A program made the position numbers and the translations under genes. Positions 5,306 to 53,672 of a stretch of 64,000 bases of DNA are shown here, in pieces. Each line of letters opens with the position of its first letter. Within the stretch, counting starts at the first letter, position 1. The stretch is taken from positions 224,001 to 288,000 of the forward strand of contig CAWKDB010000011.1 in NCBI GenBank assembly GCA_963848295.1, given 5' to 3'. Origin of the DNA: an uncultured delta proteobacterium (GTDB taxonomy: Bacteria; Myxococcota_A; Polyangia; Haliangiales; Haliangiaceae). The notes beneath the pieces are model-generated. The model searched no databases. It was not told the origin of the DNA and was given only the letters and a program-made list of their open reading frames with translations.

Positions 5306-9376
<4,071 letters not shown>

Positions 9377-9443
9377 GGCACTCCGCTGACTAGCCGCGGC
9401 AGGGTGCACCAACCCTATGACACTGACGTGCTATCACGTCGGG

Positions 9444-11186
9444 GTGCGCTGGGTAGCTGGCATCGCGATCGCGCTGTGTACGGCGGTGGCCGTCGCCGCG
9501 CCGCAGGTCGATATCAAGGCCCAGACCCAGGTCTCGCTGAGCTCGTTCCGGCTCGCCGGAGCAGGTCGCGCCGAGGTCCGAGGCCGGCTCACCGACAAGC
9601 TGACCGGCGAGGGGCTCTCCGGCGAGATCGTGACGATCAGGGTCGGGTCGGAGACCGTGCGAGGCTATACCGAGCTCGACGGCACCTTCACCGCGCAGCT
9701 CGATGTCGACGACGGCCCGCAGGTGGTCACGCTCGCGTTTCCCGGCGGCGGTGCGCTCGATCCGGCCAGCCCCACCACCGTGACCAGCGATCCGTCGAAG
9801 GCGCCGGTCGCGCTCGATGTCCGCAAGGTCGATGACGATCCGCGCGGGGTCAAGCTGATCGTGCGGGCCAGCGTCGACGGCGAGCCGATCGCACTGCCGA
9901 TCGCGCTATCGATCAGCGCGCCGGGCAGCGACAAGCGCGTCGAGCTGCCACCAGCGACGTCGAACCAGCCGCTCGTGGTCGGCCGCAAGCAAGTCGGTGG
10001 TCCCGGGCCCAAGCAATTGCGCGCCGCGTTCGCGGGCGATCTCACCCACCAGCCGGCGAGCGCCGAGACGACGTTCGAGCTGTCCGCGACGACGCAGACC
10101 ACGATGTCGTTGGCGAGCGCGACCTTGCCCTTCGAGGACAAGCTCGCGGTCACCGGCCAAGTCATCGACGAGGACGGCGCGCCCGTGCCGCTCGCGGCGG
10201 TCACTCTCAGCGCAAACGAGCGAGAGCTCGCCCACGGCCAGACCGGCGACGACGGCCACTATGCCTTCGAGGTCGAGGGCGCGGTGATCGCGCCAGACAA
10301 GACCGATCTGCCCGAGCCGTTCACGCTGCAAGTCGCGAGCGATCCGGGCAAGCCGTTCCTGACCTCGAGCAAGTCACCGCCCGCGACCGTGAAGGTCGAG
10401 AAACCGCAGCCCGTGCCTGTGTCGTACACGATGGGTGCGTTCCTCGTCACCGCGCTGGCCGCGGGCGGGTTCTTCGCCGCGCGCGGTAAGCCGTGGCAAC
10501 GGTTTCGTCGCCGCGCGCCGCCGGCCGAAGCGACGGAGGCCGCCGAGCCCGTGGTCGCGCGCGACGGCGGCATGGTGATCGCGAAGCCGAGCATGATGTC
10601 GACGCTGCGCCGCGCCGCCGATGACGGGTTCTCGGGCGCGGTCCGCGACACGGTGCGCGGCCGTCCGGTCGGTGAGGCGGTCGTCCGCCTGGTGTTCGGT
10701 GCGCTCGACGGCCGCGGCTTGCCCGCGGTCGGCAGCGCCGCCGAAGGGCGGCGCGGTGAGAGCGAGCTGGAAGCTCGGACCGCCGCCGACGGCAGCTTCG
10801 CGTTCGAGCGGCTCGAGCCCGGCGAGTGGCGCGCCGAGGTCGCGGCGCCCGGGCACGTCACCGAGCGGTTCGCGGTCACGATCCCGCATCGCGGCGAGCT
10901 CCGCGGCGTCCGCGTCGACCTCGTGCCGGTGCGCGAGCGCGTGTTCCAGCTCTATCGCCGCGCCGCCGAGCCGGTGCTTCCCGAGCCGCGGCTGTGGGGC
11001 GTGTGGTCGCCGCGCCAGATCGTCGATCACGTGCGCGCGCGTCGGCCGAGCCCTGCGCTCGCCGAGCTGACCGACTTCGTCGAAGAGGTCTACTTCTCGG
11101 CGCGATTGTCTGAAGAGACGGCGCTCGTCCTCGCCTCTGCGCGCGTCGATCGCGCGATTGCGGAACGAGCGACAGGCCGCGCTTAG
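9444..11186 (+). CDS. Secreted/membrane protein with Ig-like and carboxypeptidase-regulatory-like domains
   Basis: Signal peptide, repeated beta-sandwich motifs (TELDGTF, TGDDGHY, TAADGSF), central TM helix; divergent from smc. GTG 9444 preferred over 9417. Confidence 0.75.
   Translation: MRWVAGIAIALCTAVAVAAPQVDIKAQTQVSLSSFRLAGAGRAEVRGRLTDKLTGEGLSGEIVTIRVGSETVRGYTELDGTFTAQLDVDDGPQVVTLAFPGGGALDPASPTTVTSDPSKAPVALDVRKVDDDPRGVKLIVRASVDGEPIALPIALSISAPGSDKRVELPPATSNQPLVVGRKQVGGPGPKQLRAAFAGDLTHQPASAETTFELSATTQTTMSLASATLPFEDKLAVTGQVIDEDGAPVPLAAVTLSANERELAHGQTGDDGHYAFEVEGAVIAPDKTDLPEPFTLQVASDPGKPFLTSSKSPPATVKVEKPQPVPVSYTMGAFLVTALAAGGFFAARGKPWQRFRRRAPPAEATEAAEPVVARDGGMVIAKPSMMSTLRRAADDGFSGAVRDTVRGRPVGEAVVRLVFGALDGRGLPAVGSAAEGRRGESELEARTAADGSFAFERLEPGEWRAEVAAPGHVTERFAVTIPHRGELRGVRVDLVPVRERVFQLYRRAAEPVLPEPRLWGVWSPRQIVDHVRARRPSPALAELTDFVEEVYFSARLSEETALVLASARVDRAIAERATGRA
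10705..10765 (+). repeat. Double-hairpin REP-like element inserted in-frame in CDS (copy 1)
   Basis: GCCGCGG-CTTGC-CCGCGGT followed by GCGCCGCC-GAAG-GGCGGCGC; 49/61 identical to 34303-34363. Confidence 0.75.
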
Positions 11187-25831: not shown

Positions 25832-26308
25832 GTGACGCCCGAGCAGACTCGCTGCGTGATGACGCAGATCGTGATGCCGATGCACACCAACGGTGCCGCC
25901 GGCGTCATGTTCGGCGGGATCATGATGCAGTGGATCGACGTGTGCGCCGCGATCTCCGCGATGCGCCACGCGAGCGGCCAGGTGCTCACCGCCGCGATCG
26001 ATCGCCTCGACTTCTTGTCGCCGGTCCATGTCGGCGAGGTCGTCGTGCTGCAAGCGCAGGTCAACTACACCTCGAAGACCTCGATGGAGGTCGGCTGTCG
26101 CGTCGAGACAGAGGACATGCGGTCTGCGACCCGGCGTTACGTCACGAAGGCGTACTTGACGTTCGTGGCGACCGACGAGATCGGCCGGCCGCGCAAGATC
26201 CCCGCGATCACGCTCGCGAGCGACGAGGATCGCCGGCGCCACGGCGAAGCGGAGGCCCGCCGGCGCGAACGCCTGCGCGCTGCCGGTCGGCTTGGAGACT
26301 CACCATGA
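25832..26308 (+). CDS. Acyl-CoA thioesterase (hotdog, YciA-like)
   Basis: [30 protein letters not shown] motifs. Confidence 0.9.
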
Positions 26309-27123
26309 TCGATCGCACCGCAATGCCCTCTGGCGACGCCGCCGGCGCGGCGCAAGCACGGACCGTCGACCGCAGCGACTGGGGCCGGCTGCGGTTGACC
26401 GGCGGCGATCGCCAGCGCTTTCTCCAAGGGTTGACGACGATCAACGTCGACGCGCTCGCCGACGGCGCCCATGGCTGGGGCGCGATCCTGTCGCCGAAGG
26501 GTCGCGTGCTCGCCGTGATCGACGTGGCACGCCAAGCGGACGCGTTCGTCGTGAGCTGCGAGCCGGCGATCGCGGACAAGACGCGCGCGCTGCTCGAACG
26601 CTACGCGGTGATGGACGAGGTCTCGTTCGAGCCCCTCGCCGGTCCCGCGCACCAGGCGTGGACCGACGCGCCCTCGGTGTGGACCGCGCCGATCATCGGC
26701 GCCGCAGGACCCGGTGCGCTCGGCGATGGCGATCCGGCGATCGACCGCCTGCGCATTCACGCCGGGTTCATGCGCTACGGGGTCGATGTCGACGAGGACC
26801 ACTTCCCGTTCGAGACCCCGCTCGTCGGCTTCCTCGACTACGGCAAGGGCTGTTACGTCGGCCAAGAACCGGTGTTTCGCGTCCACGCGCAAGGCAACGC
26901 CGCGCGCGCGCTGCGCGGGTTCGCGATCGAAGGTGCAGGCACGATCGCGGCCGGTACGCCGATCAAGCACGCGACGCGTGACAACGCCGGTGTCGTGACC
27001 TCGGCGATCGGCGACGGCGATCGCACGATCGCACTCGGCTACTTGCACCGCACGTGCTGGGACGTCGGAGGAACCGTCGAGATCGACGGGCGCACCGCGA
27101 TCGTCCAGGCGCTGCCGTGGTGA
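26305..27123 (+). CDS. YgfZ/GcvT-like folate-binding protein
   Basis: [24 protein letters not shown] motifs; ATGA overlap. Confidence 0.88.
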
Positions 27124-31068: not shown

Positions 31069-31884
31069 CTACTCGATCGCGGGATTCTTCGGGATCCGCA
31101 CGACGAAGACCGCGCCGAGGTCGCCGCGGGTCTCGACGTGGATCGTGCCGCCGTGCGCTTCGATCGCGAGCTTGCAGAAGTAGAGGCCGAGGCCGCGATT
31201 CGCGCGCGCCGAAGCGCGCCGGCGCTCGACCTGGAAGTAGCGGCCGAAGATCCGATCGCGCTCCGCTTCGGGGACCGGCGGACCGTTGTTGCCGATCGCG
31301 ACCTCGAGCGAGGCGCCCGCGACGCTCGCAGCTTGCCCTCGAACGTCAGCGCTCCCGGGTGGCGGTGCGGGTGTGATGAACCGCGCGCCGATCGCACACC
31401 GGCCACCGCGCGGCGCGTAGCGCGTCGCATTGTCCAACAGATTTTCGATCACGCGGCCGAACAGCTCGCGATCGACGTTGACCAGCATGTCGGGGTCGAC
31501 CTCGACGTCGCAACCGAGCTGGCGGACCTCGAAGTGTGGGCGGGCGCCGGCGCGAGCGCGATCGACCAGCTCGATCAGTCGGACCGGCTGGATGTTCGCG
31601 TGCAAGATGCCGTCCTCGAGCTCGTCGACATCGAGGATCGTCGAGACCAGGCCGAGCGCCTTGCCGAGCAGCGTCGTCGCGTCGTCGATGTAGCCGTTCG
31701 CCTGCTTGGCGTCGGGATAGCTCGAGATCTCCTCGCGGAGCAGCTCGAGGTAGCCCTGGATCGCCGACAACGGGCTGCGCAGATCGTGGACGACGAGCGC
31801 GGCGAGCACGCGCTTCTTCTCGCGCAGCTCGCGCGCCGAGTCGCTCTCGTCCTGCGTATCCGCGCGCTTGACGCCAGCGGTCAC
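31069..31884 (-). CDS. Cytoplasmic sensor-less histidine kinase
   Basis: H-box VHDLRSPL, N-box NLLDNA, G-box GLGL; no TM or sensor domain. Confidence 0.88.
   Translation of the reverse strand: MTAGVKRADTQDESDSARELREKKRVLAALVVHDLRSPLSAIQGYLELLREEISSYPDAKQANGYIDDATTLLGKALGLVSTILDVDELEDGILHANIQPVRLIELVDRARAGARPHFEVRQLGCDVEVDPDMLVNVDRELFGRVIENLLDNATRYAPRGGRCAIGARFITPAPPPGSADVRGQAASVAGASLEVAIGNNGPPVPEAERDRIFGRYFQVERRRASARANRGLGLYFCKLAIEAHGGTIHVETRGDLGAVFVVRIPKNPAIE
31320..31370 (+). repeat. Double-hairpin element copy 3, antisense within histidine kinase CDS
   Basis: 38/51 ungapped identities to 10706-10756; read in the kinase frame as PAPPPGSADVRGQAASV. Confidence 0.65.
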
Positions 31885-33356: not shown

Positions 33357-34745
33357 ATGACGCTACATCCCATGGGCGTGAGGTACTACGCGTTGCTCGC
33401 CGGTGGAGCGCTGATCGCGGGGGCCGGCCTCGTGATCAGCTCGGGCGCGGGCCCAGGCCCGGCGGCGAAGATCAGCGACACCGCGATCGATCGCGCGCGG
33501 GAGACCGCGACGTTCGAGCGACTCGGGGATCCTGCACCGACCACGAGCGCGGGGGATCCGAAGGCCGGATCGCCGACGCCTGCGACGATCGAGATCGACC
33601 TCGAGAAGATGAGTCGGGACGGCGATCACTATGTCGCGCCCGCGGGAGACGGCCGGACCGCGATCCTGACGCTCGATCCCGAATTGCAAACGACCGCCGA
33701 GAAGTTGCTCGCCGAAGCCAGGGCGCCGCGCGCCGCGATCGTGGCGATGGCACCGGACGGACGCATCCTCGCGCTCGCCGGCTGGCGCGGCAAGGAGCCC
33801 AAGGGCGGCAAGGCCGGCGTCGCCGATTGGCACCTCGCGACCGAGGCGTGGGCGCCCGCGGCGTCGGTGTTCAAGCTCGTCACCGCGAGCGCGCTCGTCG
33901 GCGGCGGCGTGAACCCCGATGACAAGATCTGCTACCACGGTGGGATCCGGTCGATCGTCGAGTCGAACCTGCGCGACGACAAGCGCGACAACGCGTGCAA
34001 CAGCCTGACGTTCGGCGTCGCGCATTCGAACAACGCGATCCTCGGCAAGCTCGCATACCAGCACCTCGAGCCGGCCGCGCTCGATCAGCTCGCGCATCAG
34101 ATGCTGGCGCCGCCGCCCGCGACGCTGGGCTTTGCCGCGACCAGCGCCGAGCTCACCTTGCCCGCGCAGAAAGACCTCACGTTCGCGCAGGCGGCCGCGG
34201 GCTTCAACGGCGTGAAGCTGTCCGCGCTCGGCGGTGCGCTGCTCGCCGCGACCTTCGCCGATGACGGCGAGCAACCCGAGCCGCGGATCATCGACTCGAT
34301 CGTCGACGGTCGGGGCGTGCACCCGGCCGGCGGCGCCGCCGAAGGGCGACGCGACGGGATCGATGCGACCGGCTCGCACGCGCAGAGCTCGGCGCCGGCC
34401 CACCACCTGCTCGCGTCCGACGTCGCGAAGGCGGTCGGCAAGATGATGGTCGGCACGTGCGACTTCGGAAGCGCCGCGCGGTCGTTTCGGCGCGCCGCGG
34501 TCAAGGTCGCCGGCAAGACCGGGACGCTGACCACGACCCAGCCGTTCTACATGGAGAACTCGTGGTTCGTCGGCTACGCGCCTGCGGACAAGCCAGAGAT
34601 CATCGTGTCGGTCGTGCTCGGCAATCCCGAGAACTGGCACCTACGCGGCCGCGAGGCCGCGAAGCGCTTGCTGGATCATGCCGTTCGTCGTGCGGAACGC
34701 GACACCGAGTCCGTGGCCGGCAAGCCGCTGCCGTCGAATCAATGA
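33357..34745 (+). CDS. Penicillin-binding transpeptidase domain protein
   Basis: TM anchor, LTLD..LQ, SxxK (SVFK), SxN (SNN), KTG. Start may be 33372. Confidence 0.88.
   Translation: MTLHPMGVRYYALLAGGALIAGAGLVISSGAGPGPAAKISDTAIDRARETATFERLGDPAPTTSAGDPKAGSPTPATIEIDLEKMSRDGDHYVAPAGDGRTAILTLDPELQTTAEKLLAEARAPRAAIVAMAPDGRILALAGWRGKEPKGGKAGVADWHLATEAWAPAASVFKLVTASALVGGGVNPDDKICYHGGIRSIVESNLRDDKRDNACNSLTFGVAHSNNAILGKLAYQHLEPAALDQLAHQMLAPPPATLGFAATSAELTLPAQKDLTFAQAAAGFNGVKLSALGGALLAATFADDGEQPEPRIIDSIVDGRGVHPAGGAAEGRRDGIDATGSHAQSSAPAHHLLASDVAKAVGKMMVGTCDFGSAARSFRRAAVKVAGKTGTLTTTQPFYMENSWFVGYAPADKPEIIVSVVLGNPENWHLRGREAAKRLLDHAVRRAERDTESVAGKPLPSNQ
34303..34363 (+). repeat. Double-hairpin element copy 2, in-frame in PBP gene
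   Basis: GGTCGGG-GCGTGCA-CCCGGCC then GCGCCGCC-GAAG-GGCGACGC; encodes DGRGVHPAGGAAEGRRDGID. Confidence 0.75.
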
Positions 34746-50943: not shown

Positions 50944-52644
50944 ATGCGCCGCATCCTTGCCGCTGTCGCCGCTACCGCCGCCGTCGCCGCCTGCGGCGGT
51001 CACGACATGACGCCGCCCCCGACCGGCCCGATCACCGCGGACGTGCTGCACTACGACTACACGTTCGACATCACGTCGCGCGCCGCGACCGCGTCGGTGA
51101 CCGCGACGGTGACCACGGCAGGCGATTGCTTCACCCTGCCGTTTCGCGCCGATGGGCTCGCGAACGCGATGTTCGATGCCGAGCCGGCGGTGTCGGCGAC
51201 GTCGGACGCGACGTCCGCGATGATCTGCGGCACCGGGGTCGCCGCGGGCGAGCAGCTCACGGTGTCCGCCGATACCACCGTCGCGCTCGCGACGCTCGAT
51301 GCGAGCCAGGTCGGCTATTCGGTCACGAACGATTCCGACGGCAACCCGTTCTACTACCTGGTCAGCTGGGTGGAGGGCTGCGATCAGTTCGGCCCGTGCG
51401 ACAACCGCGCGAACCAATTCGCGACCTACTCGTTCCACGTCACTCACCCGGCGGAGCTCACGGTGCGCTGCCCCGGCACGGTCACCGACGTCGATCCGAT
51501 GACGACCACCTGCGACTTCGAGTTCCCCGGCGGCCCGACCTACTCGACGTTCGGCATCGCCGCGTATCCCGCGTGGACGCAGACCTCGCTCGGCACGTGG
51601 TCGGACCTGAACGTCACGCTCTACGATCGCGCCGACACGAACATCGCGGCCGCGATCGATCCGGCGTACCACTCGGGGTTCGTCGCGTGGATGGAGTCGC
51701 AGTTCGGGCCATTCCCGTACGGCAGCGATCTGCGGATCCTGACCGCGCCGACGTACTGGAACGGGTTCGAGCACCCGACGAACATCGTGCTCGCCGACAC
51801 GCTCGCGAAGCAGAAGAACTCCGGCTACGCGAACAACACCGCGCACGTCATCGATCACGAGACCACGCACATGTGGGCCGGTAATCAGACGACGCTCGCC
51901 GACCCGTACGACTTCGCGTGGAAAGAAGCGATGGCGGAGTACCTGCCGTACGTCTGGGAGGACATGAACGACAGCGCGGTCGGCCGGATCACGGCCGGCG
52001 CGTGGAAGACGTTCGGCCGCACCGCGGAGTACCCGATCGTGCCTGACGACCATCCGACGCTGATCGCGTACTACGGCGACGTCTACGGCCCGGGGCCGAT
52101 GATCTTGTTCCGCCAACTCGAAGTGCTGTCGTCGCGCGCGCAGGTGATCGCCGCGATCCAGAGCGTGATCGGCAAGCCCGGAACGTTGTCGGTCGACGAC
52201 CTCGTCACCGCGCTGCAGACCCAGACCGGGCTCGACCTCACCGCGTATGCGGCCGCGTGGATCCACGGCACCGGCACGGTCCACTACCCGAGCTACACCC
52301 TGACGTACACCGCGGGTACCGGCGAGACGAGCACGCTGCAGCTCGCGCTCGACAACCCCGACACCGCCGGCGGCAAGCTGTGCAAGTTCCACGTCGAGCT
52401 CGACGGCGCCGATCCGACCACACAGAACGCGCTCGTCGAGGTCGACACGTTCCACAACGGCGCGAACCAGACGCTCACCGTTCCGACGCCAGCGTTTCCG
52501 GTCACCGCGATCATCCTGGACCCGCAGAACGAATGCTTGGTCTACGCGAGCGCGACGACGCCGCTCCCGCCGACGCCGCACGTGAATCCGTGGGTGTCTG
52601 TGGAACCGCCCGGCGATCCCGCGACGCACGAAGTACTTCGCTAA
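50944..52644 (+). CDS. M1-family aminopeptidase lipoprotein
   Basis: Lipobox VAAC; HETTH-x18-E zinc motif; GFEH in place of GxMEN; VY..G. Confidence 0.85.
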   Translation: MRRILAAVAATAAVAACGGHDMTPPPTGPITADVLHYDYTFDITSRAATASVTATVTTAGDCFTLPFRADGLANAMFDAEPAVSATSDATSAMICGTGVAAGEQLTVSADTTVALATLDASQVGYSVTNDSDGNPFYYLVSWVEGCDQFGPCDNRANQFATYSFHVTHPAELTVRCPGTVTDVDPMTTTCDFEFPGGPTYSTFGIAAYPAWTQTSLGTWSDLNVTLYDRADTNIAAAIDPAYHSGFVAWMESQFGPFPYGSDLRILTAPTYWNGFEHPTNIVLADTLAKQKNSGYANNTAHVIDHETTHMWAGNQTTLADPYDFAWKEAMAEYLPYVWEDMNDSAVGRITAGAWKTFGRTAEYPIVPDDHPTLIAYYGDVYGPGPMILFRQLEVLSSRAQVIAAIQSVIGKPGTLSVDDLVTALQTQTGLDLTAYAAAWIHGTGTVHYPSYTLTYTAGTGETSTLQLALDNPDTAGGKLCKFHVELDGADPTTQNALVEVDTFHNGANQTLTVPTPAFPVTAIILDPQNECLVYASATTPLPPTPHVNPWVSVEPPGDPATHEVLR

Positions 52645-52784
52645 CCGTATTTTTGATCGGCGCGCCGCGCCCGCGCCGTTGCGGTTTGCGGTATCGATCC
52701 AACCGCACTGCCATTCGGCAGCGCGGATGCCCGGGCGCAGTCCCGGCCATCCATACCGCTCCCTCAGCGAAAGTGATCGATCCC

Positions 52785-53672
52785 ATGCGCGCTCAATCAG
52801 GTCTTATTCTCGCGGCGGCGGTCTTGGTCTCGTGCGGACACGGCGTCCCCGGTGCTCCGACGCTGCCGAGCAAGCCCGCCGTCCCCGGTGGGATCCCCAG
52901 CACGTCGGGTGAAGTCGATCCGAACACGTGCGGCAACTACGCCGCGTCGGACGCCGGCGCGAAGTTCAAAGTGTTCCTGCAAGCGGTCAAGGATCTCGAC
53001 GCCGCGACCACAGACGCGGCCAAGGTGATCAAGAACAGCTGCGTGACGATGGGCAACGAGCTGTCGATGCCGGCCGATGACCTCGCGGGCGACGACACCG
53101 GCGCGATCTGCAACAAGGTGCTCGACACGTACAAGGCGAACCTCAAGGTCAGCATCAAGGCGAAGGCGAAGCTCAAGATCAGCTACACCCCCGCGAAGTG
53201 CACGGTCGACGCGTCGGCGTCGGCGAGCGCGTCGGCCGGTTGCTCGGGCTCGGCTTCGGCCGGCGCTGGTGGCGGGGGGGCGAACGGCGAGTGCGCCGCC
53301 GGCGCGGCGGTCAACGCGTCGCTCCACGCCGAGTGCACCCCGGCGTCGTTCTCGGTCGGCGTCGCTGCCAAGATGATCGTCGACAAGACGAAGTTCGAGG
53401 CGACGGTCAAGGCGATCGAGGACGGCCTGCCGAAGCTGCTCGACGTCGCGGCGCGGACCCAGGGCATCAAGGATGCGGCGGACGCGGTCGTTCAGGCCGG
53501 CAAGGACCTCGCGGCGATGGGTCCGAAGTTCGCGCAGTCGTTCCCGGACCAGGGGCTATGCATCGCGAGCCAGCTCGCCAACACCGTGAAGGCCTCGACC
53601 CGGATCCAAGCCAACGTCTCGGTTTCGGTGTCGGTTTCGGCCTCGGCGACGGCTACCGCCGGCGGTTCGTGA
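52785..53672 (+). CDS. Cys-rich lipoprotein with Ala/Ser/Val low-complexity strands
   Basis: Lipobox LVSC; C-terminus ANVSVSVSVSASATATAGGS. Confidence 0.75.
   Translation: MRAQSGLILAAAVLVSCGHGVPGAPTLPSKPAVPGGIPSTSGEVDPNTCGNYAASDAGAKFKVFLQAVKDLDAATTDAAKVIKNSCVTMGNELSMPADDLAGDDTGAICNKVLDTYKANLKVSIKAKAKLKISYTPAKCTVDASASASASAGCSGSASAGAGGGGANGECAAGAAVNASLHAECTPASFSVGVAAKMIVDKTKFEATVKAIEDGLPKLLDVAARTQGIKDAADAVVQAGKDLAAMGPKFAQSFPDQGLCIASQLANTVKASTRIQANVSVSVSVSASATATAGGS

Follow-up and report, generated by a model that had tools for sequence, protein, structure and literature searches.

Cyanobacterial small dispersed repeats (SDR), at 21–27 nt, are very small mobile elements whose fold is conserved and whose target is palindromic. 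Palindromes inserted in frame into coding sequences are already known from published descriptions of Rickettsia palindromic elements (RPEs), intragenic REPs and the Bordetella BRE. RPEs (Ogata 2000, 2002) are described as palindromic elements lying in frame in unrelated, often housekeeping, genes, with an unknown mobiliser, and RPE-1 as a sequence of about 105–150 bp that encodes a conserved peptide and numbers tens of copies in the reduced genome of an endosymbiont (PMC10969869, PMC3184786, PMC3733652). The element analysed here resembles RPEs, as portrayed in these sources, in being a palindromic in-frame insert in unrelated genes that is absent from orthologues but, compared by description, differs in its length of 57 bp, its use of five reading frames, the lack of selection on the peptide, its abundance of about 150 loci, its residence in the 7.8-Mb genome of a soil bacterium, and its recent presence/absence between sister genomes. 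REPs are, according to one of these sources, mostly intergenic (PMC3733652). With GTAG REPs and BIMEs served by TnpA-REP (RAYT), as outlined in PMC3333891, PMC8266576 and PMC6006769, the element has in common short GC-rich hairpins, a tetranucleotide at the hairpin foot, a dinucleotide core, one folded strand and tandem arrays; it departs from that description in its tag ([G/T]CAG rather than GTAG), its core (CG rather than CT), the two dissimilar hairpins in each unit of fixed length, a mostly genic location, and the absence of a transposase gene flanked by copies. Stems of 8–9 bp, loops of 4–5 nt, copies in repair and replication genes and the lack of a linked transposase recall the CGTC, or intragenic, REPs as characterised by Di Nocera 2013 (PMC3733652), whereas the CGTC tag 5′ of the stem and the CCA tail reported there are missing from our element, which occurs as head-to-tail singles or arrays and not as inverted dimers. 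Mycobacterial MIRUs, also GC-rich repeats of 40–100 bp with tetranucleotide direct repeats and empty sites, differ in being intergenic or overlapping gene ends and in numbering 40–50 copies, and the BRE, also inserted in frame in genes, differs in its length of about 90 bp and its presence in about nine genes (both as summarised in PMC3184786); the terminal repeat of our element is a shared core rather than a copied target.

The element works like a REP or an RPE but, by the features compared, qualifies as a member of neither family. The initial annotation had called it RPE-like and REP-like, a label that captures its in-frame insertion in unrelated genes and its absence from orthologues, but the REP hallmarks tested are missing and the likeness to RPEs stops short of identity. 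A literature search, sparse for subscription papers, returned nothing on this 57-bp family, and the accessible part of one bioRxiv preprint (10.64898/2026.09.22.753630) held nothing pertinent.

The element was recognised in a 64,000-nt stretch of DNA (hereafter, the window) from the genome of an uncultured delta proteobacterium (G000; 7.78 Mb, 85% complete). Two copies, at 10705–10765 (+) and 34303–34363 (+), are identical at 49 of 61 ungapped positions, as first reported, and drop to background-level identity beyond both edges; the repeat unit is 57 bp (19 codons), the 61 positions counting the common core at both ends. Both copies are sense and in frame, and the similar peptides quoted for them were verified in proteins that are otherwise unrelated: a 589-aa protein with Ig/carboxypeptidase-regulatory-like domains (9417–11186, +; Pfam match to CarboxypepD_reg) and a penicillin-binding transpeptidase (PBP; 33357–34745, +; Pfam match), with the insert at about residues 317–335. 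A third copy, given as 31320–31370 and antisense in a histidine kinase gene (31069–31884, −; Pfam match), is genuine (E 5e-6); degenerate in sequence, it spans 31319–31379 (+) and lies in frame within the HATPase_c domain. The copy reported in another frame in SMC (5306–9412, −; single-copy gene with an uncertain start, placed at 9376 by our gene caller) is also real (E 4e-4), but its span is 7273–7327 (−) rather than 7287–7327; this sense copy in the hinge region is a 51-nt deletion derivative, 6 nt shorter than the full unit. Besides the element, the SMC hinge region (7100–7400) contains a long lineage-specific linker, which relatives have too. Six copies are present in the window instead of the four claimed, the additional ones being at 26309–26369 (−), antisense and in frame, directly downstream of the start codon in a YgfZ/GcvT-like gene (26305–27123, +), and at 52694–52754 (−), between the genes at 51007–52644 and 52785–53672, where the intergenic copy is matched by both the profile and nhmmer.

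That the insert should be absent from orthologues holds for all five genic sites of the window. Exactly 57 nt is missing from the Ig-like gene in the genomes G100 and G018 and from the PBP gene in G100, 57 nt from the kinase gene in G054 and G251, 51 nt from SMC in G100, and a net 54 nt from the YgfZ-like gene in G100, G018 and G065 (57 nt in G070). In the PBP gene, the element is found in none of the 24 homologous loci covering the site, a result that includes the unpublished genome G010 and holds without it. The proposal that the inserts add surface loops agrees with the structure that AlphaFold predicts for the PBP (23 sequences, mean pLDDT 83), in which the insert is modelled as a loop, in the low-confidence segment 321–339 that follows the β-strand 312–316 of an otherwise confident model. 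An unrelated short tandem-repeat insert occupies the same PBP loop in an orthologue from another family of the order (L017).

A profile and model scan of the whole genome revealed 154 loci, far more than expected by chance, as had been anticipated: an iterated profile detects 148 ungapped copies at ≥22 bits, whereas the reversed genome has no match exceeding 6 bits, and nhmmer yields 177 matches at E≤0.01, with 0 in the reversed genome, which collapse to the 154 loci. By the gene calls of a self-trained model (6,894 genes, 90% coding), 91 loci fall deep within predicted genes, 37 are at the ends of genes, and 26 between them. The description of an intragenic family is therefore apt insofar as most loci are deep in genes, but not if it implies aiming at genes: the deep-genic share is 59%, compared with 75% for random positions (p 1e-5), so that genes are depleted rather than targeted. 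Among the 83 host genes, 61 were sent to Pfam and 52 matched, including those for EF-G, ArgRS, Era, PlsX, RecG, UvrD, FtsI, SbcD and two Lhr helicases. The G000 gene calls contain no paralogue of ArgRS, Era or SMC, and the Era and ArgRS inserts interrupt alignments to solved structures. Inserts within a listed Pfam stretch amount to 12 of 50, against 50% cover. Length variants are multiples of three in 5 of 5 cases deep in genes and in 2 of 9 elsewhere, a comparison that is partly circular. In the explanation that we favour, a length divisible by three lets the element persist in genes. The sole ArgRS found (G000 C11:700301–702295) contains five tandem units, 95 aa, inside the catalytic domain.

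Each unit consists, in this order, of a CG(A) core, hairpin 1 (model positions 5–27), the tetranucleotide [G/T]CAG, hairpin 2 (positions 31–50, with a 4-nt loop), a short tail, and the core again. In the copy at 10705–10765, these parts correspond to the left CG core, the probable crossover point, at 10706–10707 (positions 2–3; C in 94–99% and G in 96–99% of copies), hairpin 1 at 10709–10731, the tetranucleotide, a candidate guide at the foot of hairpin 2, at 10732–10735, hairpin 2 at 10735–10754, and the right CG core, defined by column conservation, at 10763–10764 (positions 59–60). Either GCAG (149) or TCAG (34) occurs in 183 of 208 non-redundant copies, and position 29 is C in 99%. Both stems covary: the highest mutual information is found between positions paired in the stems, which show G–C/C–G swaps, and on 31 copies 89% of cells pair, with a covariation score of 0.226 against ≤0.09 for slid controls, a score reached by 0 of 500 shuffles, although related copies inflate such tests. 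The two tandem stem-loops that the initial annotation described are present as stated at 10705–10765 (DNA z −2.6), whereas the copy at 34303–34363 keeps both stems with mismatches but is as stable as its shuffles (z −0.15); 2 of the 6 window copies fold better than shuffles, and old single copies have decayed. G·T pairs exceed A·C pairs in the stems (97:58 in G000, 138:50 pooled), and therefore the plus strand is likely the folded, active one, an excess equally compatible with an RNA fold.

Tandem copies recur every 57 nt, with 9 arrays among 128 ungapped loci. Repeated transposition was rejected as their source: the units of an array have private variants in common, and in at least one case flank bases are found inside inner units, which makes the arrays probable local duplications. 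Half-element matches in G000, judged by eye, resemble deletion derivatives. No match to the element was found in Rfam at the gathering score. Shared copies at G000 C10:1182964, 2343305 and 2877314 display clustered, partly compensatory changes in stem 1, the pattern expected from template switching or re-insertion; 5 of the 29 changed stem pairs in shared copies are altered on both sides.

The variable positions at the two ends are uncorrelated (1 vs 58, 4 vs 61), position 1 matches the empty allele whereas position 58 stays the element's T, and position 4 covaries with the internal position 28 whereas position 61 does not. These relationships point to a crossover at the CG(A) core, and the ends of the element are a shared core without a copied target duplication. 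The fifth base of the target is linked to the element: where position 27 is G, this base is C in 100 and T in 23 copies, and where it is A, C in 12 and T in 23 (p 3e-7; 208 non-redundant single copies; the best of all flank–element pairs and above the permutation maximum). Within both subfamilies, too, the base after CGA tracks the 5:27 pair of the element, and the same link to position 27 is apparent in empty alleles (T in 7 of 10 vs 2 of 27). Linear pairing of positions 28–30 with the target was rejected, given that there is no covariation at 28:61. A HIP1-like over-representation of TCGA was also discarded: the motif is 4.5-fold more frequent than predicted from base composition but stands at 0.99 against a Markov model, so that the excess is a CG/GA dinucleotide effect. 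Across G000, Leu/Val codons end in C in 93–94% of cases before GA and in 17–30% before CG, and nTC-GA third positions are only 1–4% different from the sister genome. In the published account of a group 3 REP transposase, the tag bases choose the cut site, bases 2 and 4 of GTAG selecting a CA cut (PMC8266576); by analogy, the same rule applied to [G/T]CAG would predict a CG cut. The invariant CG core and the wobble bias may be consistent with single-strand cleavage at a tag-chosen dinucleotide.

The sister genome G100 is ~89% identical to G000 over 936 kb aligned, in a comparison that covered about 1.4 of 7.5 Mb. Flank comparisons (n=135, some sites being counted from both genomes) comprise 40 clean presence/absence pairs, 46 shared sites and 49 ambiguous ones; the element is recently mobile. 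Within the genus, a covariance model finds matches in 72 of 90 genomes at E≤0.001 and ten or more in 22, a tally that includes the unpublished G010 and G048, in which many single matches are weak and high counts are lower bounds (at least ~60). In a sample of 150 other genomes of the phylum, 4 have one weak match each. A search with an exact pattern through 45 of 64 parts of a genome collection returned 82 stretches, and among the 80 listed, 75 are titled Kofleriaceae or Deltaproteobacteria; the five out-of-lineage matches were dismissed, two having no match to the full model, one lacking hairpin 1, and two coming from an "Acidobacteriota" MAG. The latter (L288, L317) contains full elements in DNA that is 77–85% identical to G000, so that its title or binning may be off. 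The exact pattern also occurs in 122 metagenomic stretches and, as a single exact pattern, in 0 stretches of viral_contigs. Contigs from three soil DNA runs, with patchy coverage, include one that is ~93% alike and has 22 letters instead of 64 at the kinase copy, which lends weak support to absence of the element there.

On balance, we consider it probable that this is a selfish 57-nt element moved in trans as folded single-stranded DNA by a candidate Y1 HUH (RAYT-like) transposase. The non-autonomous element would borrow a transposase of this kind; its folded single strand would be cut out and inserted at a CG dinucleotide, within a short (T)CGA(Y) site, with [G/T]CAG as the putative guide and the crossover presumably at CG. 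As the initial annotation noted, no mobilising enzyme is encoded in the window, and none of the nine Y1_Tnp genes of G000 falls inside it. All eight high-copy genomes examined encode Y1, compared with 6 for reverse transcriptase, 2 for IS91-type and 0 for IS110 (PF01548), the last being found in 1 of 6 zero-copy genomes; zero-copy genomes have Y1 as well, so that this universality lends weak support. The element flanks none of 32 Y1 loci (9 in G000, which is 85% complete and was scanned but for 8,000 bases, and 23 from five relatives with high copy numbers), tag-plus-hairpin motifs are not enriched there, and across 90 genomes Y1 counts do not track element counts (rho −0.13, p 0.22; high element counts being lower bounds). 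Four Y1 proteins tested score 27–38 bits against the RAYT cut-off of 80, and the multi-copy Y1 genes of G000 have a ~300-bp repeat of their own. No leading/lagging-strand bias is visible among the G000 loci.

The Y1 genes of G000 (C10 and C2; L031–L039) form a divergent multi-copy family of nine loci, with the HUH motif and YxLNNW; seven of them seem to retain both the HUH motif and the catalytic tyrosine, and the one at C10:3806686–3807414 has a syntenic orthologue in G100. The ~300-bp repeat lies upstream of most copies and has 15 BLAST matches in G000, some without a transposase; individual genomes of the genus have up to 37 Y1 matches. G100 (L150:382–2020) has a 1.64-kb block, including a Y1 transposase, that is missing at G000 C10:1513424–1513428, so that Y1 genes look mobile themselves. 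In G043 (L147, L151, L159), Y1 genes adjoin repeats of ~500 bp that occur in both orientations, an arrangement resembling that of TIR-associated tyrosine transposases. One Y1 gene has a weak match to the element model in its 3′ end (E 0.02, small set); the match lies in conserved coding sequence and was discounted. Several familiar identities were rejected, namely, a classical MITE (there are no terminal inverted repeats or copied TSD, the ends having only the palindromic core in common), a non-autonomous IS200/IS605 derivative (no autonomous parent with the same two end hairpins was found), and a substrate of an IS110/IS1111 bridge recombinase (the eight high-copy genomes lack IS110).

A simple cut-and-join between C and G fails to account for the frequent absence of CG from empty alleles. 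Filled sites have G on both sides in 95–99%; in 37 clean pairs (flanks ≥84% identical), the core G is absent from the empty allele at 13 of the 26 sites where it falls in the third codon position, compared with 5.7% of control sites (p 4e-10). Measured against local flanks, the proportions are 12 of 29 and 48 of 325 (p 0.001). Where the core G occupies codon positions 1–2, 0 of 7 empty alleles lack it, and core position 2 differs in 0 of 24. Relaxed constraint was rejected as the cause of the broken core, given that flanking C-before-G third positions differ in only those 48 of 325 cases. A hand tally of outgroups, for which some alignments are gappy, counted a base other than G in 18 of the 45 alleles that could be read across 11 such sites, two of them outside the clean set, and in 0 of 9 across two G sites. 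Judged by outgroups, 4 of the 11 sites lean ancestrally non-G (3 with non-G in the majority of outgroups, 1 only in G054), 5 look ancestrally G, and 2 are mixed. For one site no outgroup match was found, and the outgroup search with a sigma-54 activator gene was swamped by paralogues. Three processes, namely, overwriting, preferential insertion at sites of recent origin, and scars left by excision, each account for some of the missing core G.

A more specific version of the transposase reading is possible, and we hold it tentatively: a self-guided, codon-length ssDNA mini-transposon in which the tag would specify CG and the foot of stem 1 the fifth base, and which a divergent myxobacterial Y1 would deliver preferentially to newly arisen or overwritten CG. 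Rather doubtful is the involvement of another enzyme, which would be an unrecognised recombinase or a host protein of recombination, repair or replication and would act through a short heteroduplex at the core, where a mismatched base of the target is overwritten. Such overwriting would fit the G on both sides of filled sites, its absence from half of the empty third-position sites, and the non-G outgroups, and no dedicated gene recurs beside the element: when 1,094 ORFs beside 392 element loci were clustered, no recurring mobility gene emerged, the largest clusters being host-gene families. However, overwriting should appear also at non-synonymous positions, non-G contexts being 38% of nnC-NAn, where none was seen at core position 3 or 2. 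The enzyme families tested were Y1, IS110, reverse transcriptase and IS91-type.

It is unlikely that the filled and empty alleles go back to an ancestral element that one lineage excised, with a one-base scar remaining only where the change is synonymous. Excision scars would account for the restriction of the core change to synonymous positions, and at 5 of the 11 sites, where outgroups mostly have G, the base of the empty sister looks derived; yet the element is in no outgroup at these sites, non-G recurs in outgroups at 4 of the 11, and the spread of the family would be left unaccounted for. Equally improbable is movement via RNA, with a folded transcript being reverse-transcribed and integrated at CG. 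The G·T excess on one strand, the three clear reverse transcriptase genes of G000 and the location of most copies in genes, where they would be transcribed, speak for this route. Against it, reverse transcriptase was not found in the high-copy genomes G100 and G043 (about 90% complete), none of 29 RT, IS91 or IS110 loci is associated with the element, antisense copies in genes outnumber sense ones by 56 to 35 (p 0.035), there is no variable target duplication, and Rfam yields no match.

The assertion that the conserved unit is DNA or RNA rather than peptide stands, because frames follow the availability of TCGA and inserts drift neutrally. Inserts use five reading frames, with phases of 70:20:1 against 72.5:16.2:2.3 expected from TCGA sites in genes (p 0.43), and in ten inserts shared with the sister genome divergence is 12%, compared with 11% in flanks, distributed over codon positions as 9, 15 and 14%, whereas the genes show 6, 4 and 21%. 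Retention for function as a peptide loop or mRNA hairpin is very unlikely, and as a reason for the whole family it is largely refuted: persistence in single-copy ArgRS (with its 95-aa array), Era and SMC, sites common to sister genomes and the mild antisense bias favour it, but the frames in TCGA-site proportions, the flank-like divergence of shared inserts with no third-position bias, and the depletion of loci in genes and Pfam stretches all run counter to it.

How palindromic elements enter coding genes has been an open question since the Rickettsia elements, the enzyme of which is unknown. For the selfish element that we favour, with a Y1 transposase as the candidate enzyme, base-exact filled/empty pairs are available by the dozens, the target preference is linked to the element, and the same genomes encode candidate enzymes, which makes the question testable in vitro with short oligonucleotides. 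Housekeeping genes accommodate 19 to 95 extra codons without a break in the frame, and annotators should be warned that such lineage-specific loops probably are selfish DNA. If the self-guided reading is true, the element would, as a recently active source, supply proteins with 19-residue loops and offer the first tractable model of the spread of RPE-like coding palindromes.
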